Positions 1,519 through 30,995 are shown, counted from the first letter of the stretch. The stretch: DNA of 64,000 bases from Massalongia carnosa (GCA_965645245.1 OZ287078.1:1736001-1800000), one strand, 5' to 3'. Numbers and translations are program-made. The notes: generated from the sequence alone by a model not told the origin.

Positions 1519-3825
1519 CTACTGCGTAGCGCTCCCTTCTCGGTTCGCCTCCCTCAAGCACTCCATCACAGGGACATAGAGCCTGCCGCTCCTGATGGAC
1601 TGGTAAACGGCCGTCATCAATGAACTCACGGTCGGCGTCTCGATGGTTTCCCCATGCCTGGGCTGCACGCCGTTGGGCGTCGATTCATCGGCGAGCTCGG
1701 GCTCCGGCGTCCGGATCGTGTTTTCCTGCAGGAACGGAACCTGCAGCCGGCCGCGCACGAACCGGTACATGCGGCGCGAGGCGGGTCCGAGCAGCGATGA
1801 CGCGTCTGCGTGGGCGATGTAGTGGTCGCGGTTGAGACGGTATTCCTCAAGCGCTAGGAACGCGAGATGCATTCTCCATGCTTTCAAGGCCGTGAGCGTT
1901 TCCGCCGACGACGGCGCGAACGCAAGGATTGTGGATTGCAGCAAATCGATGATGGAGACAAACCGTTTTTCAGAGTCCATGCCGGTGGTTTGGTCAATGT
2001 GTTTTTTAAAGGCCACCCACACGGCCGCCTCACATTGCTTGAGCCATTCCTTGTCTTCAACGAGACCTTCAAAAGCCTTACGGGTTTCCTCCATCAGAAT
2101 GGGACGGAAGGCCTCGAGGAATTGGATATTCATGGCCCGCAGATCCAAAGCTTGACATAGAGCAATCAGGTGGATCGCCGAAATCTGAGCTAGCACATCG
2201 AGTGCGTCAAGTGTGTATCGAGCCGAAATCAGCGCAAGGGAATTCAACGCCTGGTTGCCCATCTCGGCTGTTTGAACATGGGTTCCCACTGGATTCGCAA
2301 GAAAGCCGAGTTCGGATTGCAGAGCGGCAACCATGATGTCGGTTCCTTTCCAGATGTAAGATTCACTCGGCTCGTCCACGACTAAATTTGGTGGAAGCCC
2401 GCGGTTTGTCGTCGGGTTGATGAGCTCGGTACACTGTACCGAAAGCATACGACCAATTGTTTGGCAGCCTTGACGGGTTTTCTCCATGGCAGACGTGAGT
2501 GCTTTGGCTTGGAAGTTGCCCCCATGCAGCATCTTATTACGCTCCGTGTCAACGAGCGGGTTGTCTGTGACAGAGTTTGCTTCAATGATCACTTGTTGAT
2601 GGGCGAGAAGCAAATCTTCGAGAACTGGCCCGACCCATTGCGATGCTGTGCGAATGGAATACCTATCTTGCCGTAGAGAGGCCTCCTCCGAGCCGTCGCT
2701 TCGATGCACCAACTTGGACTCCGCCAAGAAAGCATAAATATTGCGTGCCGACTCCTCTTGGCCGGGATGTGGACGGACCTTTGCGAAGAAGGGATCGAAA
2801 CTCTCATCTGTCCCCAACAAGGCTTCTACACTCATCGCTGTCAAGATTTGCGAAAGTACAGCTAGACAATGTGCCTCGTGCATGGCCAAAGCTGCCACTC
2901 CTCCTGATATGGCTGTGCCGTTCACAATGGCAAGGCCTTCTTTGGCACCTAGTTTAATAGGCGTGATATTGGCTTCAGCAAGAGCCACATCAGCTCTCAC
3001 AATACGTCGCTTCCCTGTTAATCTATCGCCAGCCCATGCCGTCAACGTCGGTTTTCCCTGCATCAGGCCACCAATATAGGATAATGGACTCAGGTCTCCC
3101 GACGCCGAGATGCTTCCGCGGATTGGAATTCGAGGGGTAATGTCATGCTCTAGGAGTTTGATAAGGGCATCCACAGTGGATAGCTGCACCCCTGATGCAC
3201 CGCTAGAAAGCGAGTTCAAACGGATCAACATGGACGCTCGAGCCCATGACTCTGGCATACAAGTGGCGGCTACAGGATCATCAAGCGGTAGAGAAGTAGC
3301 AACCACAGACGTGATATCATCAACATCGTCGGCTCGTATCTTATGCCATTGTCCTTCGGGTTGCGCGAGCATCCCGTAATGAAGACCTCGCGTCAGAAGT
3401 CGCTGAAGTTCATCGACTGCTTTTGTACGTGTGTTTGCGCTGCCTCCAAACCCCGTGTTGACGCCTTTGAGTTCATTTTCTCAGTATCAAATCCCGACAT
3501 CAAAAATACCCGCCTTTCAGGGCTTTTCACTAACCATAAATGATTTCCCCTTTCTCCAAGCTATCCCGAACGGCTTGAGCACTCTCAGCTACAGGTTTTA
3601 TTGCCGTTTCCCCTAGCCGTACCACAGCGCCATGCCTTGGTAACCGTCAAGCCATGAAAACTCAAAGCCAAAGGGTTTTACTCACCTGGCTACTGCCACC
3701 ACTGAGGCAAGATCGAGGCTGAGCCCATCAACGAAGATCTCGTCGCTTTTGGTCTGAACTTTCCTGGTGAAGGAGTCCCAGTGCGTCAACAAGGTTTGAT
3801 TGTAGGATTGACTGAATGACACCAT
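1519..3825 (-). CDS. Aromatic amino-acid ammonia-lyase (PAL/TAL family, MIO-dependent), 3 exons, about 728 aa
   Basis: Exons 3686-3825, 3535-3635, 1519-3464 with GT-AG introns; motifs VDGLSLDLASVVAVAR, YGVNTGFGGSA, GSISASGDLSPLSY (MIO-forming ASG), KEGLAIVNGT, QDRYSIR, HGGNFQ. Confidence 0.95.
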
Positions 3826-4566
3826 ATTGAATATTGCTATGTTTTCTCCCTTTGCAAATATGAAGAAGATGAAGGTTGGCGTCCCCGCCGGTTATTAAAT
3901 AAGCTTCCCAGTTCTATTGCCCAAATCTTACCGTCAGCCCATTCTTTCTATCGATCCACATCAGTCCTATACTGCATAGTAGCATACAGCATTTTGCGCC
4001 GTAAAAGGACGTAGAGTTTTGGAAGTGATGCATGCAGGAAGGGGGCCAGACTGAGAGCGAGCATCCTACCGGAACGAAGATATAAATAAATGAACGCTTT
4101 TTCATTCGCATCTCCATTCCCTTCTGGCTCTTCCCGACCTGCGGCCCGAGTCTCCCTTACGCATCCTTTCAAAGAGAGTCGCATGGGTGTAAAGTGGTTT
4201 TATTTTTATTTCCACAAACAGGTTCTTACCTGATGAAATCTAGGTCAGCGTGGTACACCGGCTGTGGACTGCTCCCGTCAAAGCTAAGGTTATCCGACCC
4301 GTACCGAGACTGATACCATACAACTCTCAAGCCAAGATTACCCGACATTCTTATTGCTTTCCTTACCGTACCGTACTGTATCAGCAAACATAGCGCTTAT
4401 GTTGCATGCAGTGAACCAACTTTGATCTGCCTGACGGCGTAGAGAGGTTCTAGAGCCCATGTCTGTACAATTAATTCTTATTTCTTGTTCGACTTCATCC
4501 TAGAAATGAATTTGTGCAAATACTATCGTACGATAATCTTAGCGCCATTGCTGGTCGACTCCTACC

Positions 4567-5989
4567 ATGCTAACCCCATTGTTCCAGATTACGGAGCACG
4601 TAATTCCATGCCAGCACATAAGAGAATACCCTCATGCCGTCAAGTCCGAGAATGCTATTCTCCAGCTAGCGATTAAAGAATATCGACCTCTCAATAATCT
4701 TGATGCCTCGCCGGGCTCGGTTACCATTATAGGAACGCACGCAAATGGCTTTCCAAAGGTGAGAGTAACGTAGATCTTCTGTTGACAATACTTATCGGCT
4801 TCGTCAGGAAACCTATGAACCTTTGTGGAATGACCTCTGCCAGGCTCTCGGGTTCAAAATTAGAGCAATCTGGATTGCGGATAGCTCTCATCAAGGAGCC
4901 AGCGGGGTTATAAATGAGAATCTACAAGGCGATGACCGTGAGTAAGCACTCGAGGAAGTGGCTCGCAGGCATTATCACTAAATGAAGTTTGCTATTCAGC
5001 GTCCTGGTTTGATCATTCTCGAGATCTACTTCACATGATTAACCACTTTTGGGAGCGCATGCCACGGCCCATTATCGGTATTGGTCATAGTATGGGTGCA
5101 GCACAACTGTATGACGCAATCGCTTGACCAGGCCATCAGCTCACTAAATTGACTATAACTCAGTGTGCAGCTAGCTTTGATTCATCCGCGGCTCTTCTAC
5201 GGCCTTGCTCTGATCGAGCCCGTTATCCAACGCAGTTCTCCTTCCAAAATGAACCCTGCTCTCTTAACAAGCCATCGATCCGACCTGTGGCCATCGCGAA
5301 GCAATGCCAAAGCATCGTTTAGCAAGCATCCATTCTTCCAAGCCTGGGACCCTCGCGTGTTGGACAAGTATGTGCAATACGGCTTGCGCAATACTCCTAC
5401 TGCACTCTATCCTGCAAAAGCTACTCTAGGATCTGTTACCCTCACAACCACGAAACACCAAGAGGCATGGTCATATGTGCGCTCAAATTTTGTTCCACTA
5501 CCCATCGAACCAAACGACCCGCTAGAGCGAATGATATCGCCAGATCTTGATCCGATCAATGAAGGAACGTACCAATTTCACCGCGCAGAACCTATTCTTG
5601 CATTACAGGGTTTACCCCACGTTCGACCCAGCATCTTATGGATGTTTGGTGCACGAAGCAACATCAATACTCCCGCTTTACAAGCTCAGAAGATGGCGCT
5701 TTCAGGGACAGGTGTAGGAGGTAGTGGAGGAGTCGACGCGGCCAAAGTGGAAAAGGCTGTCTTCAACGATGCGACGCATATGATGCCGTTTGAAAAGGTA
5801 GAGATGTGTGCACGGGTCCTCGCCGATTGGCTAGAAAAACAAATGTCTGGTTTCACAGCTGAGGAGGCATTCTACCGAGAATTCGCGAGCGAAAAATCCA
5901 AACCAGGAAAGCTGGCAATTTCAGATAAATGGCTAAATTGTGTGCGGCAGAAAGCGGATGTCAGAAGACACACCAAAGAAAACCTGTAG
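4567..5989 (+). CDS. Alpha/beta-hydrolase (fungal MpaH/Lpx1-like family), 4 exons, about 418 aa
   Basis: Exons 4567-4758, 4808-4937, 5000-5108, 5164-5989; EHVIPCQHIREYP, HANGFPKETYEPLW, nucleophile elbow GHSMG, late HMMPFE (candidate catalytic His). Confidence 0.88.
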
Positions 5990-6922
5990 ATCCGAGCAGC
6001 CGTTGAACACGGCAACATGTTAGCCCGTTGTACCTTCCGGCTATGTTACAATAGATGATAAAGCTGGGGATTCAACAGCCTTGAACCACTACACCAATCG
6101 ATTCTATACTCGTGTATTCGGTCTTATTTGACAAGGGTGAGTAAGACATGTATCTAGAAAGCCTTGAATATCATCCCATCCCTTAAAACGAACCTCGGCA
6201 TAATTAACGTGCATCTGCCGGATGCGGAAACCGCGTTTATCAAACGCGGTGACACGGCTCAACAGATTCCCGACGGAGCCTTAAATCTACCCGAAGCCAC
6301 CAGAAACGCGGTCATTTCGGAGTAGAATTTAGGCTTATCGCTGACCATCACGTCATGATTGGGCAGGTAGGTACGCAACGGTTCCGACAGGCATTCTTTA
6401 CGTCCGGTATGCATGTCATCATCCTAGTTATCTAGGCCTTGTTTGTCTCCTGAGCAGCCCTGAGGGAGTACTCTGTAGGTATCCAACACGAACTGTTGGA
6501 TGAGACAGCTACCATAGTTTATTAATAAACCATGCACGGAGCTTTCTCACCGTTCATCACCCCCGATCACCCGAACCTAATTTTACTGCCGCCGACTTCA
6601 CACAGCCGGGCAATCCGTGTGTGACGTATAGGTCATATCTATGTATTCATCAATCATAACTCAGAAAACCGTTCGGCCTGGTGAAACTTTATGTGAGGGA
6701 AGCCTCGAGATGACCGGTTGTCTGCATATACCCGGCGCGTCTTCCCCCCTCCCTCGAAAAAAACATCTAGACAGCCACCGTGCCATATTTGCCATATCCT
6801 TGCAGTCCCAACTAAATTCCAACTTGCTAGCAGCGTTGAGGCTTGTCCAAAGTCCTTTGAGGGTTTACTAGTAATTTGGAACTGCCATTCGCTGCTGAGT
6901 TGTACTATCAACGGAACAGAAA

Positions 6923-8391
6923 ATGGCGTCTGATGATCCCCCGCAAATCCGTCTACAAAATTTGCTGAGACTCGAAGAGAGTCATGCATCAGATGTTGTT
7001 CCCTTAGCACCACAAAAAGCTATACCAAAACCCCCGCCCGACGGAGGCTTCACGGCCTGGATACAATGCGCGAGTGCGTTTTTTCTCTTCTTCAACTCAT
7101 GGGGCATTGTTAACACATTCGGTACGTGTTCATGGTTCACAACGGTTCTAAAGCCTAACGATTTTCCAGGTGTATACCAAACTTTCTATCAACAGGATAT
7201 TCTTCGTGCCGAGTCGTCGTCTAACATCTCGTGGATCGGTTCGATTCAGGCCGGCCTACTCATGATTGGGGGTATTGCCGCAGGCCCCTTATACGACTAT
7301 GGGTATATGAAAGCACTGGTGCTTGCAGGGAGCTTTTTGGTAGTCTTTGGCATGATGATGACAAGCATCTGCACAAAGTATTGGCAGATCATACTTGCAC
7401 AGGGAATAATCGTTGGAATCGGCAATGGGCTCCTCTTTGTGCCAAGCATAGCTTTGTTGCCTACATACTTTACAGCACGGAGAGCCTTGGCAATGGGCAT
7501 TGCAGCGGCGGGGAGTAGTATTGGTAAGTCGGATCCTTGCGTAGAAGGTGATAATGCATGCTAATAGCTGGTTCCAAGGCGGAGTGGTATATCCCATCAT
7601 CTTCCACGAACTTCAGCCGCGAATTGGGTTTGGCTGGGCAACCCGTGTGATTGCGTTCATCATGTTAGCAACTCAACTCCTTCCTATCGCGGGCATGAGA
7701 ATGCGCATCAAACCATCAGCAGCTCGACGGCTATTTGACATTGTAGCTTGGAAGGACCCAGCATATGTTGCCTTCGCCTTAGCATCATTTCTTGGCTTCC
7801 TCGGGCTATACATTCCGTTCTTCTATGTTCAACTATACAGTATCGAGAAACACATTATGAAGCCAGATTTGGCCTTTTATCTGGTTCCTGTGCTTAATGC
7901 TGGTTCTTTCTTTGGACGGCTGGTAAGTCTTTCTATGAATATCCAGACCAAAGCAACGGTCGCTAACCAAATCCACTTATCAGATACCAAATTACATTGC
8001 TGACAAAACGGGTCCACTTAATACCATGACTTCTTGCTCTCTAGTTGCCACCATCGTTGCATTCGTCTGGATCGGGATCGATTCAACCGCAGGGGTCTTT
8101 ATTTTCTGCACGCTTTACGGCTTTTTCTCCGGTTCGTTTGTTTCTCTATCCGCAACTGTCGTGGCTTCAGCGCTGTGTCCTCACTTGGGTTTGCTTGGTG
8201 TTCGTATGGGAATGCTTTTCCTTCCTACAGCCGTGGGTCTGTTTATTGGAAATCCAATTGCGGGAGCAATCCTTAAAACCAACTGGGTTGGCCTTCAGGT
8301 TTTCTGTGGAGCTACCGTAGGGTTGTCAACGGCGTCCATGTTTGTGGCAAGGTTCATCAAAGTCGGGGCAGGGGTTCGGGCCAAGTGTTAG
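6923..8391 (+). CDS. MFS transporter, monocarboxylate-porter (Mch/MCT) family, 4 exons
   Basis: Exons about 6923-7121, 7170-7523, 7579-7922, 7984-8391; PPDGGFTAW, SWIGSIQ, GPLYDYG, YFTARRALAMGIAAAGSSIGGVVYP; many hydrophobic helices. Confidence 0.92.
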
Positions 8392-10585
8392 TCAAGGAAA
8401 CGAATATCACGCGCGGTTTTGATGATAGAATGCATCATTAAGGGTAGAGTTATAGCCTAGACTACAATCAATATTAGTTCAAATATATTCACATCGGATG
8501 TTAGCGTCTAATACACCTTGTAAATACAAGCCATCGAAATATTTCGTGGAATTATCAACTGACCATGTTTATCGGGCGAATCGAATACTTTTCGAGCCTA
8601 TGCCACAACATTACAAAAATAACCTAAAGAGCTCACATCTTTTAACCTTGATACCTTATGAAGGCAACTCTGTGGTAACCCATAACCTGTACTATCACCC
8701 ATGCATTTTGAGACATGAACAGGTTAGAGCATAATGATCCCACGCCAGCAAGCAGGGTCTTCCTGCCCCCTCCCCTAAAAAGCAAACGAGTAATACCGCC
8801 AGAAAACCAGGCAACGTAAGAGCGTCGCAAAAGCAAGGCGTAAGGCTAAGCCATATGGCACCAGCACGCAATGAAGGATCAGCAGAGAGAGGCTTTGACC
8901 CAGGGGATGGAATCCACTCCACGAGGCCGCTGGGTGATACAAAAAAACCCAATCGGTTACAATCTCACCCTAACCCAGCCCCCACTTGTTATCGTCACCT
9001 CACCCCATCAGCAACACAACGACTATCCTCTTCGCCAAGCGCGCGCCTTCCTGACGTGAGCGGAAGCAGACTCGCTGATGGAGCTGAGCTGACTTTTCCA
9101 GGAAGGGCTTTCCCATCCGCACGCCGATAAGGCTCAACTTTGGTCCTTCGTTCATGCTCCGACTCCCTAGGAGTCAGAGGATGATCGTAGAAATTGGGGG
9201 TTTTGGAGAGCCTATTCTGGTTCACAGGTGATAATTCGTAGCGACTCGTAAACGCGGAGGAGTGGAAGGAGCGATTAGGCCTGTGTTGCGTTTCGTACGC
9301 CGTAAGCTTGCGTTTGGGGCGAAAGCTTGTTTTGATTGCATCCTCGAGCCCAATGTTCGATATTCCGGTATTGATGATACACGAAGTGATACGTTACGTG
9401 TATTTTAATCCTCTAAGCTTGGACCTTGAGTGATCAAACATCATCCACATTGAAAACAAGAAAAAGAAACCTAGGTTGATCGAACCTCGATGTTTAAACT
9501 TCTGATTTGCTGATAGGCATCATTAACCCCAAAGAGCGGTCCATGAAACCTGCATCATCCCTCTCGTTCAATGTTCCCGTCCATGCCGCATCAACATAGC
9601 CTGAATCGTTACATCGCGCTCAGCAGCCAGCCATTTTACTACTATACGAGCAAGGCTATTCTAAAGTCGGTAGATTAATAGGATCATCAAGAATGTCTCG
9701 GATGAGTCAATATTTTCTATTTTGACATCTCATTGCGTTTAGATACCTTGGATAGAGTTTCAGTCAGAGTACATCTCTACTACTGGAGGAATATCATCGA
9801 CTTCTCCAACGATGATGATAACGAGCTACACTCGTGGCCACTAACTATTAGCTGCAGATGTGCTATAAGCCATGTTCAAGGCGTCTGTGTTAGGGTTGCC
9901 AACGAACATATCGTATAACGGTGTCCGCGTACCTACTAGGAAGTCCGAATAAGGATTTTTCGATTTAGCGTTGGACAACCTGATTGTCATAGAGCTAAAG
10001 CCCACTGTTTGCATGGAACCACTAATTTTTTAGCATATTTCATTTATCAGTTGGTTCTACCCAAGGCGTAAAACTCTTGCGGTGTAAGACCATCACTAAT
10101 CACCCACTCACTGCTGTCTTGAAAACTCTATTACGAGCCTAAATTTATCAAGCTGAAAATCAGGGTAACTTCATTGGGATTGAATCAAGAAGAGTTTGAT
10201 GACCTTCGTGAATTGAGAACGGAGCAAGAAGCCTGATGGGATCATTTCTTTTTCTCTCGGGAAAGTGGGTATCCATGAGGACGAAGTCGAACAGATCATA
10301 CTCGCTTGCAATAGACAGAAATTTAGCTAGACATGGCAATGAAACACCGAACTACAGTGCTAGGATGCTACGCCTCCGGCCGCTGAGAGGCAAACTTTCT
10401 AAGGTCTAAAGATTGACTTCGATCTTCGGAGTCGAAGGATGGGGCCTCTTTGCTTTTATTAATACTCTATCGAAAGGAGTTTTTCTGTTCCCAAGCTCTT
10501 ATGTTTTCCCATTGAATATTTTCTCTCTCTTCTTGTTTCTTGATTTCAAATTCATACTCTTTACAACGAAATTTCGACAGCTAAG

Positions 10586-12014
10586 ATGGCGCTATCACTA
10601 CTCAGATTCGTAAAATTCCCTCAGCTACTCAACAGGCAAACACCTACCCATGCGCACCCTCACATGGCGTTGCTGAAACAACAAGGAGCCAATTCGATAG
10701 CGCAGGAGCTTGTGGTTTGGCGATGGATCAGCACAATATCATTTATCAAGAACTCGGATGCTCAGCACTGGTGGAGTACAGTTGGCTATGCACTTGCAGT
10801 TCTATTACATCAAGCAGATTATGATGTCGAGTCTCAGTACCGTCATCTAATATTCTTCGCCTTTGTTATCACCCCAGAACTCGGAGCTGCTCCTAATACG
10901 CAGCTCTCAAATCACCATTGGAAAAGTTTCATGACCGATGATAACACGCCCGTTGAGCTCAGCTGGGATTGGGGTGTTGAAGGGGATCTTCCTACCGTCC
11001 GATACTCTATTGAGCCCATTGGATCAGACGCTGGAACTCCCAGTGATCCATTTAACCAATTTGCGGGCCCTCAATTCGTTCGACAACTCAGTAAGGCGCT
11101 TCCGGGCACTGATCTAGAATGGTTTGAGCACTTTTCCAAGGAGTTCCTGATATTCGCCAATCAAAGTGGTTCAGCTGCTGAAAAGCATGAGTCAAGATTC
11201 TTCGCCGCGTTTGATCTTCACCAAAACGACATTATCCTCAAGGCTTACTTTTTCCCGGCCTTCAAAGCTATCGAGACTGGGAAATCCAGACTGACAGTCA
11301 TCTCCGAAGCGTTTACCCGGCTGCCCAATTATCGCGCAATAGACTATCAGGCCTTTCGTCTTCTCCAAGACTACATTGAATCGCCTCCCACGGACGCTGC
11401 GATGGAGGTAGAGATGCTCGCGATTGACTGCGTGCGCCCGGTGGAGTCTCGGTTTAAGATTTACACTCGATCCCGATCCACCAGCTTTGATTCGGTAAAA
11501 CTGATCATGACCTTAGCCGGAAAGATAAGAACTCCGGAGATGTCCAAGGGACTTGATGAGCTTAGGATTCTGTGGGAATTCCTGTTTGGGCTCGATCGCG
11601 CTTCTAGCGAAGAATTGCCGCACACGGGACACCGCACGGCGGGGATCTTGTACAATTTTGAGCTCAGACCCGGTACAGCTTTACCGGTTCCCAAAATTTA
11701 CATCCCTGTGCGCCATTATGCCGCGAACGACGACTACGTTATCGACAGACTCCAGACCTACCTCTTGAGGTGCCGAGGCCGCCCTGAGCTTATGGAGAAA
11801 TACCATGAAGCCATAACGGCCCTCTTGTAAGTTGACCATGGCATTCTTCATTTCCTCGTGGAAATCTAACAAGCACCGAAAATCTAGTTCTCCCCGCTTC
11901 CTGCAAGATAACGCCGGCGTGCAGACCTATCTTGGTTGCGCTATCAAGGACGGGTCGCTAAGGCTTGTCTCGTATATTAACCCACAAGTATGTAAATTGT
12001 CGCATGTTGGTTGA
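10586..12014 (+). CDS. DMATS-superfamily aromatic prenyltransferase (SirD/TyrPT/7-DMATS-like); start may be ATG 10664
   Basis: WKSFMTDDNTPVELSWDW, VRYSIEPIG, LKAYFFP, SRFKIY, PKIYIPVRHY; intron 11827-11887, then GVQTYLGC...SYINP. Confidence 0.92.
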
Positions 12015-12846
12015 ACTTAGGCTTTCCGAGTGGTGTTTTTTCATTGGCTGGCAGGCGGAGAATTTGATGGTTCATAGATTCAGAGTAGTACGATGTCATC
12101 TCCCATAAGCGTTAGAAGCAAAGAAATTTAGAGTATTAGATAGAGCAGGAAATTGAAATCTCGACTGAATCCCATTCTACTTCTTGAGGCCTGATTTTCA
12201 TGCCCAGACTATACGATCTGAGCTGAAAAGGAATATTCCCTCATCTGGCAACTACGTAAGCCCTAAGTATACGAAGTAGAGTTTTCAGGAACTTTACTCG
12301 GTATCTCGCGTACTCGCCGACGGGCCCTGATGATTCCATCTTCGCATACCGAGTATTGAGTGCAACAGTCAGACTGTGTGATCAGGGCAAGACGCATAAC
12401 TGCAGCATAGGGTGTCCGTCAATCCTGGATCGGCCGGAGGTGCGTACACCAACCAGGTCCTCCGAACTTTGCTGGATTTTCGGGTAACTCCTTTAACTTT
12501 TGATTACCCCGTACTGTATTGGTAATTATATACGGCCGCGGAAAGATTACGTTACGGGTTGGGGTAGGGGAATGAATTGTCACCCTCCGTTTTTAAGAGC
12601 TGAATGCTGTGAGAATCCCACGCTGAAAGGAGGATATGGATGGATGGCTGAATGGATAATATATAAAAATGGTCATTTTCCTCGTTGCTGGGAAATTTCA
12701 GAGGTTGTGCATCACATTTTCCCGCATTCCTACAACTTGCCACCAACAGTCAATTTCCCTAAAGTACCTGTTGACTTTGCAGTAAGTCGCGTATCATCAC
12801 ACGCCCCCAACAGCTCTAGTTTTCTCTTCGCCGTCTTCTATCCGTC

Positions 12847-14352
12847 ATGCTTGCATATAACATTCCCGCCTTCGTCGCTTGCTTTTGCCTGCTGTTCATC
12901 TACGGCGTGCCGGCCGTGCGGAACCACCTTGCCCGCAAGCGAGTCAGCCGGGAGCGTGGCTGCCAGCCTCCCCCCTCAGTCGCGCAGAAGGATCCAATTT
13001 TCGGCTTGGATGTCGTGCTGCAGCTGTTCCGCTCGTACGAGGGTGGGCGCCGCAACGTCGCCTTCAAGAAGCAGATCGAGACCTACGGATCCACCTTCCA
13101 GTGGAAGACGTACGGCACCACGCGCATCTTCACCATCGAGCCTGACAACCTCCGGGCCGTCTTCTCCACCGATTTCAAGAACTGGGGCTTGCAACCCCTC
13201 CGGCTCGGGCCATGGGAACCCTTTGTCGGAAAGGGGATCATGGACAGTGACGGCGCGTTCTGGAAGCACTCCCGCGCCCTGATCCAGCCGACGTTCTCCA
13301 GAGAGCAGATTGCTGATCTTGAGTCTTTCGATGTCCACTTGCAGCGAATGCTTGAGTTGATCCCGAGAGACGGAACCACCACGGTGGACATGCAACCGCT
13401 TTTCGCTCGCTTGATCCTTGACGTCTCGACCGAGTTCCTGTTCGGTGAATCCGTGGAGTGCCTCACGACTAAAACCACGCTCGACGCGACTTCGTTCCTG
13501 AAAGCCTTCAACTACGGCCAAGCTGGGATTGGGAAACGCTTGCAACTCCCGCAATGGACGCTGTTCACCCGCGACGAAAAGTTCTGGAGCTCCTGCAAGA
13601 TCGCTCGTGATTTCGTCGACAAATATGTCGATCAAGCTTTGCGCCGCAGCGAATGCCCCACGCCCGACAAACCGGGCAAGTACATTCTGGCCTGGGAGCT
13701 GGCCAAAGAAACCAAGAACCGAGACGACATCCGGAACCAGCTACTGAACGTGTTCCTCCCCGGCCACGACGCCATCGCCGTGCTTCTGACCAACTGCTTC
13801 TTCAACCTCGCGCGCCACCCGGAGGTGTACGCCAAGCTCCGGCAAGAAATCATCCCGCTGGGCGATTCCGAATTGACCTTCGACCGCATCAAAAGCCTCA
13901 AGTACCTTCGTAGCGTGATCGACGAAACCTTCCGCCTCACCCCGACCGTGGGCCAAACCGCGCGCATCGCCCTCCACGACACCGTCCTCCCTACCGGCGG
14001 CGGCCCCACCGGCACCGCGCCCATGTACGTGAAAAAGGGCAGCAACGTGCAGATGAACTTTTACGCGCTCCATAAACGCGTCGAGGTCTACGGCGCCGAC
14101 GCCGAAGTCTTCCGCCCCGAGCGCTGGCAATCCCTGAAGCTGTCCCACTGGGACTACCTCCCCTTTGGCGGCGGGCCCCGCATCTGCCCTGCTCAGCACA
14201 TGACCTTCGCCCAGGCCGGCTTCACCATCGTGCGCATCCTGCAGCAGTTCCGTGCCATCGAGAACCGCGATCCATGCCACGAGTTCATCGAGCAGTACAA
14301 GATCAGCACCGAGAGCAAGAACGGTGCGAAACTCGTGTTAATCCCGGTTTAG
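12847..14352 (+). CDS. Cytochrome P450, CYP52-like clan, single exon, 501 aa
   Basis: N-terminal TM anchor, DPIFGLD, WKHSRALIQPTF, ExxR (ETFR), LPTGGG, PERW, heme motif FGGGPRICPA. Confidence 0.95.
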   Translation: MLAYNIPAFVACFCLLFIYGVPAVRNHLARKRVSRERGCQPPPSVAQKDPIFGLDVVLQLFRSYEGGRRNVAFKKQIETYGSTFQWKTYGTTRIFTIEPDNLRAVFSTDFKNWGLQPLRLGPWEPFVGKGIMDSDGAFWKHSRALIQPTFSREQIADLESFDVHLQRMLELIPRDGTTTVDMQPLFARLILDVSTEFLFGESVECLTTKTTLDATSFLKAFNYGQAGIGKRLQLPQWTLFTRDEKFWSSCKIARDFVDKYVDQALRRSECPTPDKPGKYILAWELAKETKNRDDIRNQLLNVFLPGHDAIAVLLTNCFFNLARHPEVYAKLRQEIIPLGDSELTFDRIKSLKYLRSVIDETFRLTPTVGQTARIALHDTVLPTGGGPTGTAPMYVKKGSNVQMNFYALHKRVEVYGADAEVFRPERWQSLKLSHWDYLPFGGGPRICPAQHMTFAQAGFTIVRILQQFRAIENRDPCHEFIEQYKISTESKNGAKLVLIPV

Positions 14353-17355: not shown

Positions 17356-20300
17356 TGTCAACCTTTCTGACCAATCACATGGATTCAGGAAGGATGAAAA
17401 GACTGTATTCTGTATGTGGGAAATGCCCACATCTAGCTACCTATATAGAAGGGAAAAGGGGTCATGGCGGCAACGATATCAACCCCGGCAAATTGAGGGG
17501 TAAAGGTGGGAAAGAAATGGCGTAGTCTTAGCGGCATCTGCCGCGACAGGGGGTCGAGGATCGGCGATGAGAATCGACCGCATTCAGGTTTGACACACCC
17601 CCCCAGGATGCGAAGCATCCTGACCAAAAGAAGAAAACATGAAGCAATTCCCATTCGAGAAAAAGGTGCTGAGGTCGATGGAGGTGGAGTGCTCTCGGGA
17701 GTCGGAAGATGCTGCTGACTCGGTGAATGTCTCGGCATGATAGGGACGTCTTTCGCAGTCAACGACGCGGGCACATCCAGTGCAGACGAATTTTCAACCG
17801 AAGAAGGGTCAGCAGATGACCGACTGCGTATCGCTGTCGCTTGCCATTGCTCCTCATCTTCTGCCAAATCAACAATGTAGGGAGCAGCATCGAAAACTTC
17901 CAGCTCTACAAATTCGGACATATTTTTTTCGAGAATCAGTTCCTTTTTGACGTAGGTAGAGAAATTCTGGTCTTCATCAAAAATGACGTCTCTATACCCA
18001 CTGACCGACCAGGTCTCGGGATTCCAGATTCGATAAATATTTGTAGAATCGTATCCGACCAGATAGCCAACAAATGCTCGAAGGGCTAGTTTCTCACTTT
18101 TTGGCGGGGCATCTTTGCCTTTCAGAAGTGGGTATGCCTTGCACCCAAAGACCTTGAGATGACCAATTTCGGAATTGTATGGCTTCTTCAGGGCTCGGTG
18201 CAGGGAAATGTGAGGCGATTTCCAATCTAGGCCTTTTATCGGCGTTCTATTTAGCAAGTGTCCAGCAGCGAGATAGCACTCGGGATACAGATCTTCTGGC
18301 AAATCGGCGCCGATGCGAATGCATCTAGCCTTCTGAGTCAAAAGGCTTCCTGCCCTCTCAGCCGACCCATTCTGCTCCTTAGTATGCTTTGCGGACCATT
18401 CAAACGCGATTCCCTGTTCCTCGACGAAGTCCTGAATGACGTCTCCAACTGACGTTTCCTGATCCATTCGAAAGGTCTGAATGAAAAGACCGAATTCGGC
18501 TCCGAGTCGATCGCACCGATTAATGACATGCTTGACAATCCGAAGTAGTATCTCCTGCTTATGATCTTGCAGGGGGAAGACCCAATGAAACGAGGTGAAA
18601 TCATCCTGAAAATGAGCGACGCAGGTGGTCCCATCGAAAGCAGTCCTTTTCAAAATAATGAGGTCAAAATGAAGACGCTGGAATGGTTTAGTGGCTTTAG
18701 TAGCCGAGACTCTTGATACTAGTGTATGCATTTTTGACAATGCGCACGTCTCACATTTCACTGTCTTTGGAGCATCTTGACCACTGTCACCTCTTGAAAT
18801 CTCGATCATCTTCTGATTCGACAACTGGTTAATGACTTCCGGTTGGCAATGTCCTAGGCGGAGATGAAATTTCCATGGCGTGCCTTTTGGGATGGCATCT
18901 GCCGAGACTCGGGAACCGACGAAATTTGCGAAAGCACCGGCATGACCAACTGGATGATACTCGACGGTATAGAGACCAAAGTGCTCTTCCAATTCGAAGA
19001 TTGGAATGCCTTTCTTTTCAATCCTGTCCGTATGCATATTCCAAAGGAATCCTTTCTTTTTCAACTTGCTGACCGAAATCAGAGTCACCGAGGAAGCGGG
19101 GACATAGGCCGTATTCTGAAAATGCAGTGGCTGATTCTTCCCATTTAGTGTCCCATTTACTAGCATCGTCCCAAATCCTTCAACAAGGAGATCTCCGTCG
19201 GGAGTCGAGACCCATTCGTATGCCGGGATGATTTCGTCAATAAACCGGGATTTGTCCCAGGTCAGATGATTGGAGCATCCCGAGTCGTAGGAGACACTGA
19301 GATGAAGCAGATTGTCGCGATCCGAGATCGTATTTCCAAAAGAGACTGGAGCATTCTCGACAACAGGGAGCTCGGCGGGAGCATTGCCATTGCCTCGGCC
19401 ACGACCTCCACCTCCGCGACCCCTCGACCTCCACCTCTTCCTCGATATCGAGGTTTCAAAGGTTCATCAGGCTCGGAGATGCCGTTGAGAATGTCGGATG
19501 TAGCGGCGCGTTTGACATATCAATAAAGCTTGGAATTGGACTCGATTTTCTGTCGGATGTGGTCGCGTATCTCCTTATTGAATTTCCATCCCGAGATTCT
19601 AGACTCGACTGTCAAATAAGGGCATCTTTTCCAGGAGTGAGTTTCGCCGCAAAGGCATTCGTTATTGCCGTACTTGCTATCGTCGGAAGTGGAATTTCCC
19701 TGATCGGAAGAAGACTGTCCTTGCAGAGAAGCGGAATTCGCCGAGAGCTGCTGACGACGACCAGTGCTGATTGCATTTTCTTCTATCTCGGTCCGATACT
19801 CATTGGCGGCCTCGAAGAATTTAAGGGGACGACCTGATACATTTCGTATCTTGATCCAGGTGTCGCAAAAGAATGGTGCCCATGTCCGAGCGGCTTTCAG
19901 AAAGTGCTGAGTGTAGATATACTCACTATAGATGGGTTCAACTTTCAAAGCAACGATTTCTTCCCTCAGCGTTTCCCATTGGCAGATCCAGGATTCGATC
20001 TTTCCTTTCACCGGGTGAGAATTTCTTAACTCGTCGTATTGACGATCGATCTGCCTTTGAACTTCGTCCGGATTCTTTTTGAATTTGTGGGCCAGGGACT
20101 GAAGAATTTCTCGAACCGAGGATGATCTGACATTCCTGGCGACATAATCTTTAGCCGACTCCAGGATGATCGTATGAACCTTCTCAATTCCTATGGCTGC
20201 GGCCCTGGCATCTGCCTGAAGCCCTCGATGTGACCGTTCATCTGCGTTGTACGACTCCTTCTGTGATTCCGAGAGATCGGCATACCGAGAACATGGTTCG

Positions 20301-20909
20301 GGAATCAGGACCGGCGGGCCATTTGAATCGCCGAGAACTGTCCCTTGAGAAGAACCTTGAGAAGCGACAATAGCAGGCGTAGGGGTATTGGTAGAATCAG
20401 TGCCAGGCGTATTTGCCGAGACGACTTTGACGTAATCACTGTATTTGGGAAATTTGGGAATGGTAGGTTCCGACTCTGATCCTTCCGGATCGACGTACTC
20501 CCATACCTGAGATCGTACCGCGATACTCTTGATTTCCGACAACCAGGAATTGTAGGTCCTAGGCGTCAGAGCCGAGACGATGAGTTTCCGAGACGATCCC
20601 GACGACGAGTCTTCCATTTGGGATAACCGACCAATGATGGAGACAGATGGGAAAAACAGGGAAACGACCAAAAAGGCAAAGGAAAACAGAAGCACGAGGA
20701 ATAAATCAACTCTGCGATGCTCCATGAAAGATACGATAATTCCGGTGGCGATACTCAGCCTGCCTAGGATATTTCGGGGTCGATGAAGTCAGCGATAAAT
20801 CAGCTTACCAATAACTAAAGATAAGATGAAGGCAGCGAAAAATTCAGCTAACCCGGGCTCATAACTGTCAACCTTCCTGAATCCATGTGATTGGTCAGAA
20901 AGGTTGACA
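17356..20909 (-). mobile_element. Copia-derived element (gag-PR-IN, no RT/RNase H) with 38-bp terminal inverted repeats and 5-bp TSD
   Basis: 17356-17393 is the exact reverse complement of 20872-20909; TSD CCTCG at 17351-17355 and 20910-20914; empty site at about 42008; PBS-like GTTATGAGCCCGGG on the minus strand at 20852-20865. Confidence 0.9.
17433..20725 (-). pseudogene. Copia-type gag-protease-integrase polyprotein (stop at 19520-19522, frameshift near 19420)
   Basis: Gag knuckle CLCGETHSWKRC; protease YDSGCSNHLT (about 19265-19290); HLRLGH...CETC Zn finger; rve core LHFDL...RMDQE...NGSAER; SH3-like LKVFGCKAY...GYDSTNIYRIWNP; no YVDD RT motif follows. Confidence 0.88.
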
Positions 20910-21681
20910 CCTCGTTTCAAGAGAACTCGATGCCGCCAAATCATTAGCTGAACGAATCCTTTCAATTGTCCCTGATGAAAGCTGTGTTTATGATTGTGAA
21001 TTGCCTTTAAGGTACGGTCTCCCATACAAATGCTGATTGTATAAATGCATCATCGACTCGATCCATATTCCCGTTTCCCTCATTCACGGCCGCTAGTTTT
21101 TTGATGGCCCACCTTATGCGGTCTTTTGACAAATGACCTTCGATCTCGCTCGCGGCTCGGAGCCCGAGGTCGAAAAGATCGTCGATGAGGTTAAAGGGAA
21201 GAGAGAGATTGAGGCGAATAAGGATGAGGTCGAGCTCGAAGGAGGCGTGTTGAGTGAGGATAAATTTCGCCGCGGGGGCCTTGCTTTGCTACATTCTGTG
21301 GCAAATCAATCTAATGACCTGCATCAATCAATAGAAGATTCTCATCGAAGGAAGGAGTACGCTCGCGAGCATGCTCACATCGTTGAAAAGTTCAATAAGA
21401 AATGGCAAAAGAAGGAGCTGATAAGACCTCTCATCCCCACCACATTCCCCGACGAAATACGGCCCAAAGAAAACCTCATGTATAAGAAAGGAGGGAGTCA
21501 TCGACGTGCCTACACTGATCGCACCATTTACAGTTAGTGCGAGGGGGTGGTGCCTTCGCAGCGACGATAGTATGCCTCCTGAATGGCATCCTAAGCCCAA
21601 TGCGGTTAGACCGCAGCAGCGCGGAAGAGGCAACACACGAGCTGGTGCGTGCGACCGAGCTAAACCTTAATGGTCCACCTA

Positions 21682-23920
21682 ACCATGCGACCGAGGTAAA
21701 TCCGATGGACCGCACCCCGAGCGGAGCTCGGGGTGCGGCTCACCTCTATGACGCTATCATCTCCACGCATTTCTCAAACTATTTACATTATATCCATTGA
21801 TTGACCCTTTCAAAATGAAGGTATTCAAAATCAAAGGCTGACGTTTATCTATCCAGCTTTCGGCCTTTTAACCCACCAAGCCAACCCGTTTAGCTTTCGC
21901 TTTTCCATAGAGAAATATTTTCTTTTGTCTAGCCGTCTCAGCACGCTTTTGACGACCCTCCTCCTTTCCACCTCTTCTTGGGTACGATGTAGGTGATTGT
22001 GCCTCACATCTCGAGCGGTAACGATTCCTCCCTTCTGAACAACGGTGCCAGCAAGCTTTTTTCGGGCCCTTTTAGCCAATGCAGCTGTATGTGTGGTTTG
22101 CAAGTCGCGTTGCGTCAATTCTAGTAAATTAGCGTTTGCAACCGACCCTTTGATAAAACGTCGCATTCTTTCTGGAGTAATTTCTTCATTATTATTCATT
22201 CGTTGAATAATGGTTTTCTCTTCCATAGCAACGTCTTTGGGCTTTTTGGGGGTATGAGGTAGGATTATTGTCTCCGAAGATGATATTGGTATTGGTGGTA
22301 ATGCCGGATTTAAAGTACGAATTTTGGTCAAGACTACCTCCGGGTTTTAAGGTATCAACCCAGTTTTTTCCCAGGCTGATTTGTTAGAAGATGATTTGAA
22401 TGCCTTTGTACGAAATTGATTGAATGCGGCCAGAAAATCCAGACGATTGAAGTCAACGTCACCCAACCGAATGGCGTTGTCAACCGCTTCTGCATGATAA
22501 TGTTTCATTGGCTGAAAAAAACCAACGTCTAATGGCTGCGTCAAATGGGTTGAATGGGGGGGGGGGGGAATCTGAATAAACAGATCTTATTTTCTTTCGA
22601 ATATTCCCAAAATTCATACGTTAGATGAGATCCATATCCATCTAACAAAAGAAGCCTAAACGCTCCTTTTTGAACCTTTTTTGAATGAGCATTAAAATGC
22701 TTTAACCACTCTAATTGTCAGGGCATAGAAGGAATAAGGGCTAAGCTAACTAAGCGGGGCTTAGTTCTACGGCTAGGCTTAGGCATATGGAAAGCAGTTG
22801 GTCTGCGTTACGCGGCTGGTATCTACTGCCGAGAGTATAGTACGAGCGATCGAGATATACGAGGATGCTCGTACGATTAGTGAGCGGATAGTACGATACA
22901 GTCAGCACAGTGTCCACGATACAGTCAGCACAGTGTCTACGATACAGTCAGCACAGTGTCCACGATGCAGTCAGCAGAGTGTTTAGCCGGCTTATCCGGT
23001 AGGAGTAATGGGCGGTCAAGATAGTTACAGTATCAAGGGCCCAGAGGGTCAAGGGCTTCGGTCCGGGTATATAAGGAGGCTGCTCGAGGGAGATGCAATC
23101 TTCAACGATTAGTCTTCCGCTTTACCTACATACTTCTTTTAGTATATTAGTATAGCAAACCATTAGTGTCTTCACATTGTCACATATCCCTAGGCCTGGT
23201 GTCTGATAATCACCAGGTCTGACTCTTACACTAATGCTAGAAAATCATTCGAATAGCCGCTATCGCTTGTAGTCAACACGATATCATCTTTCAAATCATT
23301 CTCTAAGGCCCATTTGTGAAGTATGTTGACCCCTTTCAAAATAAAAAAGGATGGAACGCTTCCGCCAACTCCATTGATGCATTCGACCGAACTTATATAG
23401 TCTCAATTGTCTGGATCAGCGATTATAATTCGTTTATGTGATGATAGTGTCACTACTAAATGGGTTACCCCAAAGCTAACTCGAAAGCCTGTCTTATCCA
23501 TATTCCATATATCATCTGAAGTTATACCAAAAAGGGCTACAGTCCATTGAAATGAAGAGAAATAAGTTTGAATATCCGTAACATTGTGAGCGTTTTTCCT
23601 TTCGGCTGCTAATGGCTTGCCTTTTTGCATGAAAAATTGGGGATTTCTTTTCAAGAATCGTCCGGTCCAGCATTTTCCTACGCGGGTGAGAGAAGATGAA
23701 GACGAGGATGGATGTTGCAATTGCAACAAATAATCAGCTGCACCGCGAATCAATGGCAATCTCATTGATAATTCAATATCATCAAGAAATTCAATATACT
23801 ACTTCAGGGCTAGTTCTAGTGCGGCAGACAGCCTCATATTGACTGCATAAAGTCTGAGGTGAGCCGCACCCCGAGCTCCGTTCGGGGTGCGGTCCATCGG
23901 ATTTACCTCGGTCGCACGGT
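21682..23920 (-). mobile_element. pogo/Fot1 (Tc1-mariner superfamily) DNA transposon, defective
   Basis: About 65-bp TIRs at 21682-21746 and 23856-23920; TA on both sides (21680-81, 23921-22); minus-strand transposase remnants WNMDKTGF, LLLDGYGSH, QPLDVGFFQPMK with stops and frameshifts. Confidence 0.9.
22716..23230 (+). mobile_element. Solo LTR (515 bp) of the Gypsy element at 47336-53910, inserted in the pogo transposase
   Basis: TG...CA; TSD CTAAT at 22711-22715 and 23231-23235; differs from the full element's LTRs at about 8 positions, mostly transitions. Confidence 0.95.
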
Positions 23921-23922
23921 TA

Positions 23923-26900
23923 CGGCAACCGTAGATCGAAGTTCAATGAACCTTTTGATGTTCAGTTCACAGCATGACAGTAGCTCCCTCCATCAAGGCC
24001 TGATTCCACGCAGGCTATTGATGACAGTTGGTGTGATTACCTGGATAACGTCTATGAAATTCCTTTACTCTAGTAGTTGCGTTATTAACGTACTCAGCGT
24101 ATTCCCTAGTAGGATCGTTCCATCCTATCCACTGCACAAGGTACTTCAGGCGTTTTCGCACAAGCTTGGAGTCGAGAATTTCCTCCACTTCATACTCATC
24201 CTCGCCGTCGACGAGGACTGCTGGGGGAGCCGGAGGGATGTGGCCAGGATGAGGATCGCGAGGGACAGGGGTCAGGAGCGAGACTGGAACACTGGATGGA
24301 TTTTCATACCGGGAGGGAGGTCGAGGCGATACGCGTATTTACTGACGACTTGGGACACCCTGAAGGGACCGAGCTTCTTCCAGTCCAGTTTGCGAGCAGG
24401 TCTCTGAGTACGTATGTTTTTGGCATTCAGCCATACGCTGTCTCCTACTTCATAAACCGGAGCTGGGACTCGATGTTCATTGGCGTTTGACTCATATTTC
24501 GCTTGCGAGAACTGCATTTCTTCTTGAAGCTTTCTGCTTATTTCCTGCATTCTGATGACAAAGCTCTCAGCGTTGAGACTTGCGGGTGACGATACTTGAT
24601 CCACAGGCTCGAATCCTATACGCGGATGAAATCCCATTTCTGCAAAGAAGGGGCTGAAGCCAGTGGTCTCCGAGGTCGTATTATTGCCGGTGAACTCTGC
24701 CAGCGGTAACCAGTCAACCCAATCGTCCTGTAAGTAGTCGGAGTACATCCGCTGATATTGTTCCATGGAGGAATTGACTCGCTCCGTCTGCCCGTCGGTT
24801 TCCGGGTGAAAGGCTGTAGACAGAAGACCCTGAATTCCCAAACGCTTGCACAATGATTTCCAAAAATCTGCGACGAAAAGCACTCCTCGATCTGAGATGA
24901 TTGTTCGTGGTAGCCCATGTAATCTCCAGATATCCTTCAGGAACAGTGCGGCGAGGCCCTCGACGTCGAGAGTGGTGAGGCAGGGCGAGAAGTGGCGTCT
25001 CTTGGAAAGACAAGCAACCACTACCATGATCGCATCGAACCCTTGCTCTCGGGCAGACCGGTGACAAAGTCCACTGAAATATCCTGCCAGCGTTGTTCTG
25101 GTACCGGCAGAGGCCTGAGTACTCCCATCTTTCCTTGACGAGAGGTCTTGCTTCGGGCGCAAACATGACAATGCTTCACGTACTTGGCTATGAACTGATA
25201 AAACCGAGGCCAATAATACTGACGTTGCATAAGATCAAAATTCTTTGCTCTTCCTGGGTGTCCCGCTACTGGGTTGTCGTGCATTATTCTACAGAGTTTC
25301 TTTTTCAGTGCATGTGAGTCCGGGACGCACATCTTCCCTCGATAATGCAGTCGACCATTGAATTATTCGCACTCCGCCAAGGAGATTTCTTTCGAGTGGC
25401 TTACTTTGTCTCGCAATAGTCCAAGAATTTTCGTCGGAAATGAGTCGACTTGAAGGCCTTCAGTCCAGATTTCTTCCAGAGTCCGTTCGGCCTCTTGCTC
25501 CGTTTGACGATCGTCAACTTGACTAGCATTGTCTACACTATTGCTCAGAAATTCCAGATTTCGAGGTTTCAAGACCACTTGATGTTGAATTTTCAATCGA
25601 GAGTCATCCTCCCCTTCAGGTAGGTCTTGAGACCTTCTAGTCAGTGCGTCTGGTTTTCCTCCACTCTTTCCTGGGCGGTACACGATCTTGAAATCAAAAC
25701 GGGAAAGATACTATGACCAACGAGCTTGACGGCGGTTTAGCTGCTTGGTTGTCATGAAGTACTCTAGATTCTTGTGATCTGAAATGACATGAATGGGAAA
25801 GGCAGCTCCTTCGAGCTCTGATCGCCATTCCTCAAAAGCACGAACGATAGCCATGAGTTTTTTGTCATAGATTTTCATAATTGATTTCTGCAGGGGAGTG
25901 TTTCTTGGAGAAAAAGGCTACCGGCCTCAATACTCCCTCAGCATCGTACTGTGACAGAACTCCTCCAACTACCCAGTCGGAGGCATCGACTTCAACTATA
26001 GTTTTCTTCTCTGGATCGAAATGCATCAAGACTTGATCGCTGACAAAAGCATCCTTTAGGGCCTGAAAGGCTTTCTCGCACTCCTGATACCAGGCAAAAA
26101 CAGTGTTCTTCCGAGTCAACTTGATCAACGGAGAGGCTATTTCAGAGAATCCTCTGACGAAACGACGGTAAAAGTTGGCAAAACCCACAAAGGCCTGAAT
26201 ATCTCTAACGTTCTTTGGCGAGGCCCATTCTTTGATGGCCAGAACTTTCTGAGGATCCATGCGTATACCATTGTCGGATATTATCAGTCCCAGGTAGGTA
26301 GTCTCGGTGACGAAGAACTCGCATTTCCCAATATCTAACTGAAGTCCAGCGGCTCGAAGCGCTTCCAGCACTTTTCGTACATGAACCTTATTTTCCTTGA
26401 CAGACTTGCTGTAAATCAGGATATCATCAATATAGGCAGTGCAGAAGGCGTCGAGATATTCTCTAAGAACATCGTTGATATAAAGCTGAAAGGAGCCTGG
26501 TCCTCCACATAGTCCAAATGGCATTACATTGTACTCATAGAGACCAAATCGCGTCTTGAACGCCGTCATCCACTCTTGTCCCTTCTGAATGCGCAGCTTG
26601 TTGAAGGCTGCCACTATGTCGAACTTGGAGAAGATCACCGCTTTGGCTAGTCGGTCTAGGGTTTCCTGAATCAGAGGTAGTGGATAGCGATTCTTAACTG
26701 TAATGGCATTCAGGCCTCGGTAATCTACATAGAAACGAAGTCCTCCGGAAGGCTCTCGGGCGAACAGAACAGGAGAGGAGGCAGGCGATGAGCTAGAGCG
26801 GATGAATCCCTACGCGAGGTTTTCCTTTAGGTATTTCTGTAAAACTTGTAATTCAGGGGCTGACATCTTGTACAGTGGGCCCGAAGGAGGAACAGCTCCC

Positions 26901-30448: not shown

Positions 30449-30769
30449 GGATGTGATACATAATAACAACCTAGAAATTCCATCAAGAAGCGCATGTTTC
30501 AATTCAATGTTTTCCCACGACATAGCTTCTTGTCGGCTTTTTGCTTCAGCGTTCTGTCGAAGGATCTAGCTAACTAGTGTTTGCTTGAGTAGTTCCTGAT
30601 TATGCCGCTTCTTAGTACGATCTGATTGTGCTTGTCGCCTCGCTCGCTCGACTTTGGATGTCATCATTTCATTTGAGCTACGGACCTAAGCACAGCTTAA
30701 TATGTTTAACTCGGATAAAATTTCAACCGAAAATCGATTTGAGAAAACCATTGATAATGCTTGCAGTCG

Positions 30770-30995
30770 GCCTCCTTTCACCGTCCTTGATTCGTGTATG
30801 CCAATCCAGGTTGACTATACTGATTTGAGTGTCTAGATGCTCCTCTCCCAGTATCCCCGAGCCTGTCTTCATCACTTGTACCTCTAGCTCCTCAGCCTCC
30901 TTTCACCGTCCTTGATTTCAGTAGGTCAATGCTAGTTTGGCCATGTTGCTCAGCGTGGAAGGATGCTCCGGCCTCAATATCCTCTTTCTTGTCTC
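30770..30995 (-). pseudogene. TPR-repeat remnant of the kinesin-light-chain type found in fungal NLRs
   Basis: Minus-strand translation ETRKRILRPEHPSTLSNMAKLALTY*NQGR*KEAEELEVQVMK...LGEEHLDT. Confidence 0.7.

Follow-up and report, generated by a model that had tools for sequence, protein, structure and literature searches.

The DNA analysed here, a stretch of 64,000 nucleotides from Massalongia carnosa (GCA_965645245.1 OZ287078.1:1736001-1800000) referred to below as the window, spans positions 1736001-1800000 of contig C12 in a genome of 52 Mb and 25 contigs. Near its left end lie five adjacent genes encoding an aromatic amino-acid ammonia-lyase, an alpha/beta-hydrolase, a transporter of the major facilitator superfamily (MFS), a prenyltransferase of the dimethylallyltryptophan synthase (DMATS) family and a cytochrome P450. 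Together with two probable partner genes elsewhere in the genome, they suggest an ascomycete pathway devoid of backbone enzyme and apparently split over two contigs, which would convert Tyr into an exported prenyloxy-cinnamate or prenyloxy-benzoate with an oxidised prenyl methyl, a reading to which we attach a probability of about 0.5. The features of the window are the following:

3825..1519, minus strand: 4-methylideneimidazole-5-one (MIO) aromatic amino-acid ammonia-lyase, 728 aa; exons 3825-3686, 3635-3535 and 3464-1519 (2 introns)
4567..5989, plus strand: MpaH-like alpha/beta-hydrolase, 418 aa; exons 4567-4758, 4808-4937, 5000-5108 and 5164-5989 (3 introns)
6923..8391, plus strand: MFS transporter, 434 aa; exons 6923-7121, 7170-7523, 7579-7922 and 7984-8391 (3 introns)
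10586..12014, plus strand: DMATS-family prenyltransferase of the SirD/TyrPT group, 455 aa; exons 10586-11826 and 11888-12014 (1 intron)
12847..14352, plus strand: CYP52-clan cytochrome P450, 501 aa; intronless
17433..64000, no strand: transposon-rich right flank from a frame scan; bounds the cluster and lies outside the pathway

The five-gene locus and its candidate partners

The presence of five adjacent and intact genes, stated in an initial annotation of the window, was confirmed: all five spliced models are open frames with GT-AG introns (intron positions were predicted, RNA not being used), and domain matches were obtained for the lyase (PF00221, E 3e-135), the DMATS (PF11991, E 2e-110), the P450 (PF00067, E 4e-55) and the MFS transporter (PF07690, E 9e-9). 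Moreover, in each of two sequencing runs a single contig matches the region without differences, over positions 1219-16828 for X1 and 1003-16837 for X2. The runs come from one sample that is possibly the source of the assembly itself, and their contigs display no splice joints.

A metagenome scan with a DMATS alignment, in which flanks of up to 10 kb a side were read, provided 72 related loci falling into 43 groups, 23 of them with at least 10 kb. One group of eight near-identical loci holds all five genes together with an adenylation enzyme, a PTH11-like gene and a second P450, the five being all within the fetched flanks in three of the eight loci (L026, L027 and L033). Identity of this lineage to the window proteins reaches 58% for the lyase, 55% for the hydrolase, 55% for the MFS transporter (best piece), 41% for the DMATS and 60% for the P450. 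Seven further groups have at least one window gene other than the DMATS, L049 having the MFS gene only, on a short contig. Counted over the 43 groups, the lyase occurs in 4, the hydrolase in 5, the MFS transporter in 4, the window-type P450 in 2, the second P450 family in 3, the adenylation enzyme in 5 and the PTH11-like gene in 6, and 34 groups have none of these genes, many owing to short contigs. Among the four groups with a lyase, the adenylation enzyme is found in all four and the hydrolase and the MFS transporter in three each. The proposal that the genes form a cluster is thus borne out by their co-conservation, the five being together in one other lineage and subsets of them in six more. 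No paper describing this gene set was found among the top-ranked results in the open-access literature, a scope that leaves most subscription journals and MIBiG outside.

The adenylation enzyme and the PTH11-like gene are absent from the window, the intergenic gaps of which contain no relic of either or of the second P450. Their best matches in the M. carnosa genome are adjacent and both intact on contig C8 (C8:1870444-1875148, L095/L096), where they encode proteins of 630 aa and 371 aa, respectively. The adenylation enzyme matches at 56% identity, compared with 27-28% for the next two candidates, and the PTH11-like protein at 57% (E 6e-56, compared with E 3e-21 for the next of 45). Since related clusters usually hold this pair, the cluster appears to be split over C12 and C8. 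The reverse check, with the hydrolase and the P450 of a related cluster, retrieved the window genes as best genome matches. No DNA similarity was detected between window positions 1-17500 and the C8 region, in which an MCM gene adjoins the pair and a different P450 follows 5-9 kb further on, together with an NmrA-like gene. The adenylation enzyme (PF23562) stands alone, its chain stopping right after the domain without a carrier or reductase domain; no solved relative was found for it, and its Atlas matches are generic bacterial AMP-binding clusters. The PTH11-like membrane protein belongs to PF20684. Judging from co-occurrence and the best-match pattern, the C8 pair probably works with the C12 genes. 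The five-gene set of the initial annotation therefore stands as to its members, but it probably missed these two partners, illustrating that a cluster prediction made on a single window can overlook genes placed on another contig.

On the right, the frame scan, which covered 26 of the 27 frames with 170 aa or more, revealed long terminal repeat (LTR) and long interspersed element (LINE) retroelement frames, in agreement with the transposon-rich region announced beyond the genes, along with DUF7924, HeLo and ankyrin genes. Two related DUF7924 genes have opposite orientations (33817-35783, plus; 44700-46401, minus), and the HeLo-domain and ankyrin genes occupy 54872-58399. Left of the lyase, a repeat of about 125 bp at 904-1032 is matched at 62 other places in the genome, often in pairs about 770 bp apart, and resembles the terminus of a small transposon. 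The 50 kb left of the window were also inspected (57 of 68 listed frames scanned) and contain methyltransferase, caleosin, 6-phosphogluconate dehydrogenase, GNAT, Dcp1, GH20, NACHT, transcription factor, permease and transposase genes, the GNAT gene being separated from the lyase by about 12.5 kb and by housekeeping genes. The S-adenosylmethionine-dependent methyltransferase and the caleosin (C12:1731610-1733898, L009:5610-7898) lie 3.6-5.9 kb left of the lyase, the methyltransferase at 3.6 kb; both were considered as cluster members and rejected, having no counterpart at any of the 72 related DMATS loci. No oxidoreductase or berberine bridge enzyme (BBE)-like gene was seen beside the five genes, and no N-acyltransferase adjoins them.

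Within about 50 kb on either side, the scanned frames include no polyketide synthase (PKS) or non-ribosomal peptide synthetase (NRPS). None of 25 ketosynthase matches is on C12. Of 67 AMP-binding candidates 13 were scored, and those of them on this contig are situated about 1.4 Mb away; a weak match (27%) was noted at a distance of about 240 kb. In another view, the five genes would be what remains of a larger ancestral cluster, or would mainly feed O-prenyl-Tyr to an unlinked PfaA-type NRPS or PKS-NRPS, with no self-contained product. Such a view would account for the two conserved partners on another contig, for the second P450 family of related clusters having no orthologue in the genome (best match 44%, compared with about 68% among orthologues) and for the transposon-rich border; PfaA does build with O-prenyl-Tyr (PMC13232330, main text), and several NRPS genes are present in the genome. 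We nevertheless find it highly doubtful, since all seven genes have intact frames, the lyase would destroy the amino-acid building block, and six related loci, scanned over up to 10 kb on each side, revealed no PKS or NRPS domain.

Prenyltransferase and ammonia-lyase

The SFMTDD..P.E.SW motif of the DMATS reads SFMTDDNTPVELSW, and its F206 and K370 occupy the positions of K174 and Q343 of FgaPT2. Phe and Lys at these positions characterise the 4-O-Tyr prenyltransferases according to the main text of a study in which 4-O-prenyl-Tyr and its N-acetyl form were the sole in vivo products of two lichen DMATS (PMC11443524). The window DMATS thus has the Phe/Lys pair of the 4-O-dimethylallyl-L-tyrosine synthases (SirD group), a trait necessary but not sufficient for that function. 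From these residues and its characterised relatives, it is very probably a Tyr 4-O-prenyltransferase.

Counting in the other direction, the best solved match of the enzyme is Fusarium DMATS1, which we take to be a Trp N-prenyltransferase and which itself has the Phe/Lys pair and the SFMTDD motif. The motif, on which the initial annotation had based the affiliation to the SirD/TyrPT group, is therefore present as claimed, but on its own it leaves Tyr and Trp undecided. With SirD and TyrPT also taking Trp, the DMATS could be imagined to use another acceptor, either Trp or p-coumarate made by the lyase, leading to an indole or to a C-prenylated cinnamate. This appears scarcely credible: the lyase lacks the His tied to Tyr activity, PpnA, the prenyltransferase of the ppn cluster (penipratynolene, Penicillium polonicum), prenylates only L-Tyr among the tested Tyr catabolites (PMC13232330), and the product range of the two lichen enzymes of the group (PMC11443524) does not extend to such compounds.

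The DMATS and P450 trees are quick trees without bootstrap, and in the DMATS tree the L044 row derives from a mis-extracted frame and L103 was left out. The window DMATS clusters there with unnamed relatives of 53-63% identity and is placed outside the ppn-like DMATS clade, as a sister group (Shimodaira-Hasegawa-like approximate likelihood ratio test, SH-aLRT, 99). It shares 42-45% identity with the DMATS proteins that adjoin a P450 family of ppn type, named hereafter the P0264 family. Two further DMATS genes exist in the genome: one (C13:1764566-1765651) is near an O-methyltransferase, a 2-oxoglutarate-dependent dioxygenase and a short-chain dehydrogenase, and the other (C5:1195648-1196712) is located amid housekeeping genes and a transposase. 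Other gene associations were observed at the metagenomic loci. In L016, L017 and L051 a Tyr-type DMATS is found beside a flavin monooxygenase-like gene, L016 having a nitrilase-family gene as well and L017 a P450 of the P0264 family; this may represent an oxime route from O-prenyl-Tyr. In L038, L039, L053 and L063 the DMATS is accompanied by a distant CYP52-clan P450, and L038, which also has an ABC transporter and an ATP-grasp enzyme, is another type of backbone-free cluster.

The lyase possesses the ASG triad of the MIO group at positions 170-172 and the inner-loop Tyr in IIYG, and it scores 541.7 bits against TIGR01226 (cut-off 519). Its Gly107-Leu108 correspond to His137-Gln138 of the Rhodotorula toruloides phenylalanine ammonia-lyase (RtPAL). 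The residue classically found at position 137 of PcPAL, Phe in phenylalanine ammonia-lyases (PAL) and His in tyrosine ammonia-lyases (TAL), is thus replaced by Gly, and the cluster lyases differ from classical PAL and TAL. The H137V/Q138L substitution in RtPAL is described as improving the turnover of para-substituted substrates (PMC9226071), and PpnC of the ppn cluster deaminates O-prenyl-Tyr and O-homoallenyl-Tyr and neither Phe nor Tyr (PMC13232330). By analogy with PpnC, and considering its opened pocket, the window lyase probably disfavours free Phe and Tyr. The order put forward initially, Tyr O-prenylation followed by deamination, is consistent with the PpnA/PpnC logic and with the active-site residues of both enzymes. 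A second ammonia-lyase of the genome, of the His type and 39% identical to the window lyase, keeps His at the selectivity site and adjoins an NRPS gene (C2:2085700-2094100, L104/L105).

Hydrolase, transporter and cytochrome P450

No Pfam match was obtained for the hydrolase in the two pieces scanned. Its last exon aligns with solved MpaH' (PDB 7DBI, E 4e-33), the only solved relative with a significant score, and its predicted triad S138-E162-H349 matches S139-D163-H365 of this enzyme; homology and intact triad agree with the MpaH-like nature first assigned to it. MpaH' is described as an acyl-CoA hydrolase that gates beta-oxidation and bears a C-terminal GKL signal (bioRxiv 10.1101/524025). 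The MFS protein is closest to monocarboxylate transporters, with a TIGR00892 match (E 1e-15) that is far below the cut-off and limited to the N-terminal piece.

The P450 displays an I-helix reading PGHDA, with Ala309 in place of the usual Thr, the ExxR motif at 360 and Cys447. Its Atlas neighbours are labelled alkane-inducible or alkane hydroxylase (score 0.99), and its nearer relatives have the motifs GxGIFTxDG and AGRDTTA, which we take to be typical of the CYP52 clan. By sequence membership the window enzyme is a CYP52-clan P450, a clan whose CYP52 members oxidise alkanes and fatty acids (PMC10608907). Arg119, invariant, and Arg231, nearly so, could hold a carboxylate. In the quick tree the window P450 falls with two DMATS-linked P450s in a clade of 19 rows (SH-aLRT 100). 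The initial annotation was right to call it atypical among P450s at large, but within its own family it is normal, 99 of 120 relatives being devoid of the I-helix Thr. As the loss is common in the family and the P450 orthologues of the five-gene lineage retain this Thr, its absence is no marker of special chemistry in the pathway. The P450 gene has a G + C content at third codon positions (GC3) of 0.81, compared with 0.47-0.58 in the other four genes, which may reflect strong expression or another origin.

A missing I-helix Thr can nonetheless favour peroxo-type C-C cleavage. The P450 might accordingly remove a prenyl methyl from O-prenyl-Tyr to form a homoallenyl or butynyl ether, from which the lyase and the hydrolase would lead to a eucalyptene- or penipratynolene-type acid. 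Formation of an allene or alkyne by this P450 had been proposed initially with reference to PpnB and NseB, and what was stated of these two enzymes was correct: the main text of the report describes how these P450s, from ppn and from the nse cluster (sinuxylamide, Nemania serpens), demethylate O-prenyl-Tyr to allene and alkyne, PpnD then isomerising the allene on the benzoate (PMC13232330). PpnB starts by hydroxylating the prenyl methyl, which is also the opening step proposed here, ppn has the same DMATS, lyase and P450 logic (PMC13232330), and a distant CYP52-clan kinship of PpnB is possible. However, no positive link between the window P450 and PpnB or NseB emerged, and this route seems quite unlikely. 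The best 120 of its 1319 matches are 50-66% identical, and the 13 named to organism among them include no Penicillium, Xylaria, Nemania or Apiospora, 12 coming from lichen-forming genera. Ten nearer relatives, five of them named, likewise included no ppn or nse producer, and one Xylariaceae isolate was at 40%. The pair V127/L380 is reported for PpnB, with I126/F379 as the counterpart (PMC13232330); the window P450 has V127 but V380, and neither combination is present in any of its aligned nearer relatives. The Thr retained in the five-gene lineage and the position of the window DMATS outside the ppn-like clade also argue against the route. Similarly, no support was found for the initial idea that this CYP52-clan enzyme acts on the amino acid before deamination.

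The P0264 family, found through a fused Apiospora gene call, comprises P450s of P. polonicum, N. serpens, X. telfairii and A. arundinis, and its locus tags adjoin DMATS genes in several species. It is only 22-25% identical to the window P450 (25% for the P. polonicum member P0264, OQD61524.1) and has no orthologue in the M. carnosa genome (best piece 41%). Its internal identities of 66% and 69% resemble the figures given for the PpnB clades (PMC13232330). Considered as PpnB, this family was rejected since it lacks the expected residues at V127/I126 and L380/F379, and it may be PpnD instead. The second P450 family found in related clusters was likewise rejected as PpnB, its residue spacing being 258-261 instead of 253. 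Three unrelated P450 families without the I-helix Thr are found beside Tyr-type DMATS, with PGHDA (window), AGHDV (P0264) and AGSDA (this second family of the related clusters); the last, at L033:13803-14896, L035:12825-13970 and L074:7436-8877, is a candidate prenyl-modifying enzyme of the related clusters. A more far-reaching version can be conceived, to which we give little credence, in which a CYP52-clan P450 without the I-helix Thr would have gained prenyl C-C cleavage independently; the family would make allenyl or alkynyl aryl-ether acids with an enzyme unrelated to PpnB/NseB, and the adenylation enzyme, the MpaH-like hydrolase and the PTH11-like protein would form an undescribed downstream module working across two contigs after the split.

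Proposed pathway and comparison with known systems

From these gene functions we infer the following reactions, order and product. The DMATS would very probably add a dimethylallyl group to the 4-OH of L-Tyr, as its residues and characterised relatives indicate. The lyase would then probably deaminate O-prenyl-Tyr to 4-prenyloxycinnamate, in view of the PpnC precedent and the opened pocket. It is, taken jointly, slightly favoured that the acid would be activated by the C8 adenylation enzyme or a host CoA ligase and that the MpaH-like hydrolase would free the cinnamate, or 4-prenyloxybenzoate after one round of beta-oxidation; Aspergillus nidulans is described as turning O-prenyl-Tyr into coumarate and benzoate ethers (PMC13232330). 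As prenyloxy-cinnamate and -benzoate are similar to a medium-chain fatty acid bearing terminal methyls, the simplest reaction for the CYP52 clan is hydroxylation of a methyl. With even chances, the P450 would bind the carboxylic acid and oxidise a terminal prenyl methyl to an alcohol, and possibly further, as the omega-hydroxylases of the clan do with fatty acids. The monocarboxylate-type MFS transporter would finally export the acid.

Several observations, besides the DMATS1 match, weigh against this pathway. The hydrolase ends in KENL, with no canonical peroxisome signal, four of its relatives end in ERL, SRL, EKL and PNL, of which only SRL looks canonical, and the adenylation enzymes have no peroxisome signal, which is awkward for a peroxisomal route. 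In the quick tree, the window DMATS does not group with that of the five-gene lineage (41% identity). The Gly of the lyase is not shared, three other lineages with a readable motif having Glu-Leu, and it is therefore particular to the window lyase. As its orthologue is found beside a DMATS in 2 of the 43 groups only, the P450 is accessory and its substrate a guess; one relative at 54% bears the automatic name lepH, which we take to designate a ring-expanding P450, so that another chemistry is possible. Moreover, ppn yields a benzoate though the main text of its report names no cluster hydrolase (PMC13232330).

The recurrence of the adenylation enzyme with the lyase, its stand-alone structure without peroxisome signal and the degenerate signal of the hydrolase would also suit a different ending, with the first two steps unchanged, in which the adenylation enzyme and the alpha/beta-hydrolase act as a ligase/acyltransferase pair making an ester or amide of prenyloxy-cinnamate. 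As host enzymes already shorten the acid (PMC13232330), the dedicated genes may serve otherwise. This ending remains unlikely, though worth retaining: the only significant solved relative of the hydrolase is an acyl-CoA hydrolase, no acceptor-making gene recurs in the loci, and a monocarboxylate-like transporter fits the free acid that the pathway preferred here would release.

The recurring set of DMATS, lyase, adenylation enzyme, MpaH-like hydrolase, PTH11-like protein and MFS transporter, with variable P450s, makes the pathway question testable. Lichen-forming fungi commonly have Tyr-type DMATS genes, and neither of the two enzymes expressed in the 2024 study was linked to a pathway (PMC11443524, main text). 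The chemistry expected is near known steps unless the P450 surprises. The present locus would give a first function to a large uncharacterised P450 family, and its lyase would be an example of a pocket opened in nature to bulky substrates with a para substituent, a trait sought in PAL engineering.

Among the known systems, the lichen As DMATS and Ri DMATS, with SirD, TcpD and TyrPT, belong to the same subgroup as the window DMATS and share the Phe/Lys pair and, as compared by eye, the SFMTDD/ELSW and PVRHY motifs; their report connects none of the lichen DMATS with either a pathway or an end product, and the word 'ammonia' is absent from its main text (PMC11443524). MpaH' of the mycophenolic acid pathway, of the same family as the window hydrolase with a matching triad, ends in GKL and gates the shortening of a farnesyl chain (bioRxiv 10.1101/524025), whereas the window hydrolase ends in ENL and would act on an aryl-propenoyl or benzoyl CoA ester. 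The nse cluster shares the Tyr O-prenyltransferase and a P450, but its N-acyltransferase blocks deamination (PMC13232330), whereas the window has a lyase and no adjoining acyltransferase. The closest parallel is ppn, with which the window shares the absence of a backbone enzyme, the Tyr O-prenyltransferase, the O-alkyl-Tyr lyase, P450 tailoring and, presumably, an aryl-ether acid as product (PMC13232330). ppn has in addition a second P450, a methyltransferase, an oxidoreductase and a BBE-like enzyme, whereas the window has a single P450 and none of these beside its five genes; conversely, neither a hydrolase nor a transporter, an adenylation enzyme or a PTH11-like gene is mentioned for ppn in the main text of its report. 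The window P450 is of the CYP52 clan, 25% identical to P0264, and its DMATS stands outside the ppn-like clade. The cluster therefore works like the front half of ppn without being a member of it, since it lacks the genes particular to ppn and possesses another recurring module.

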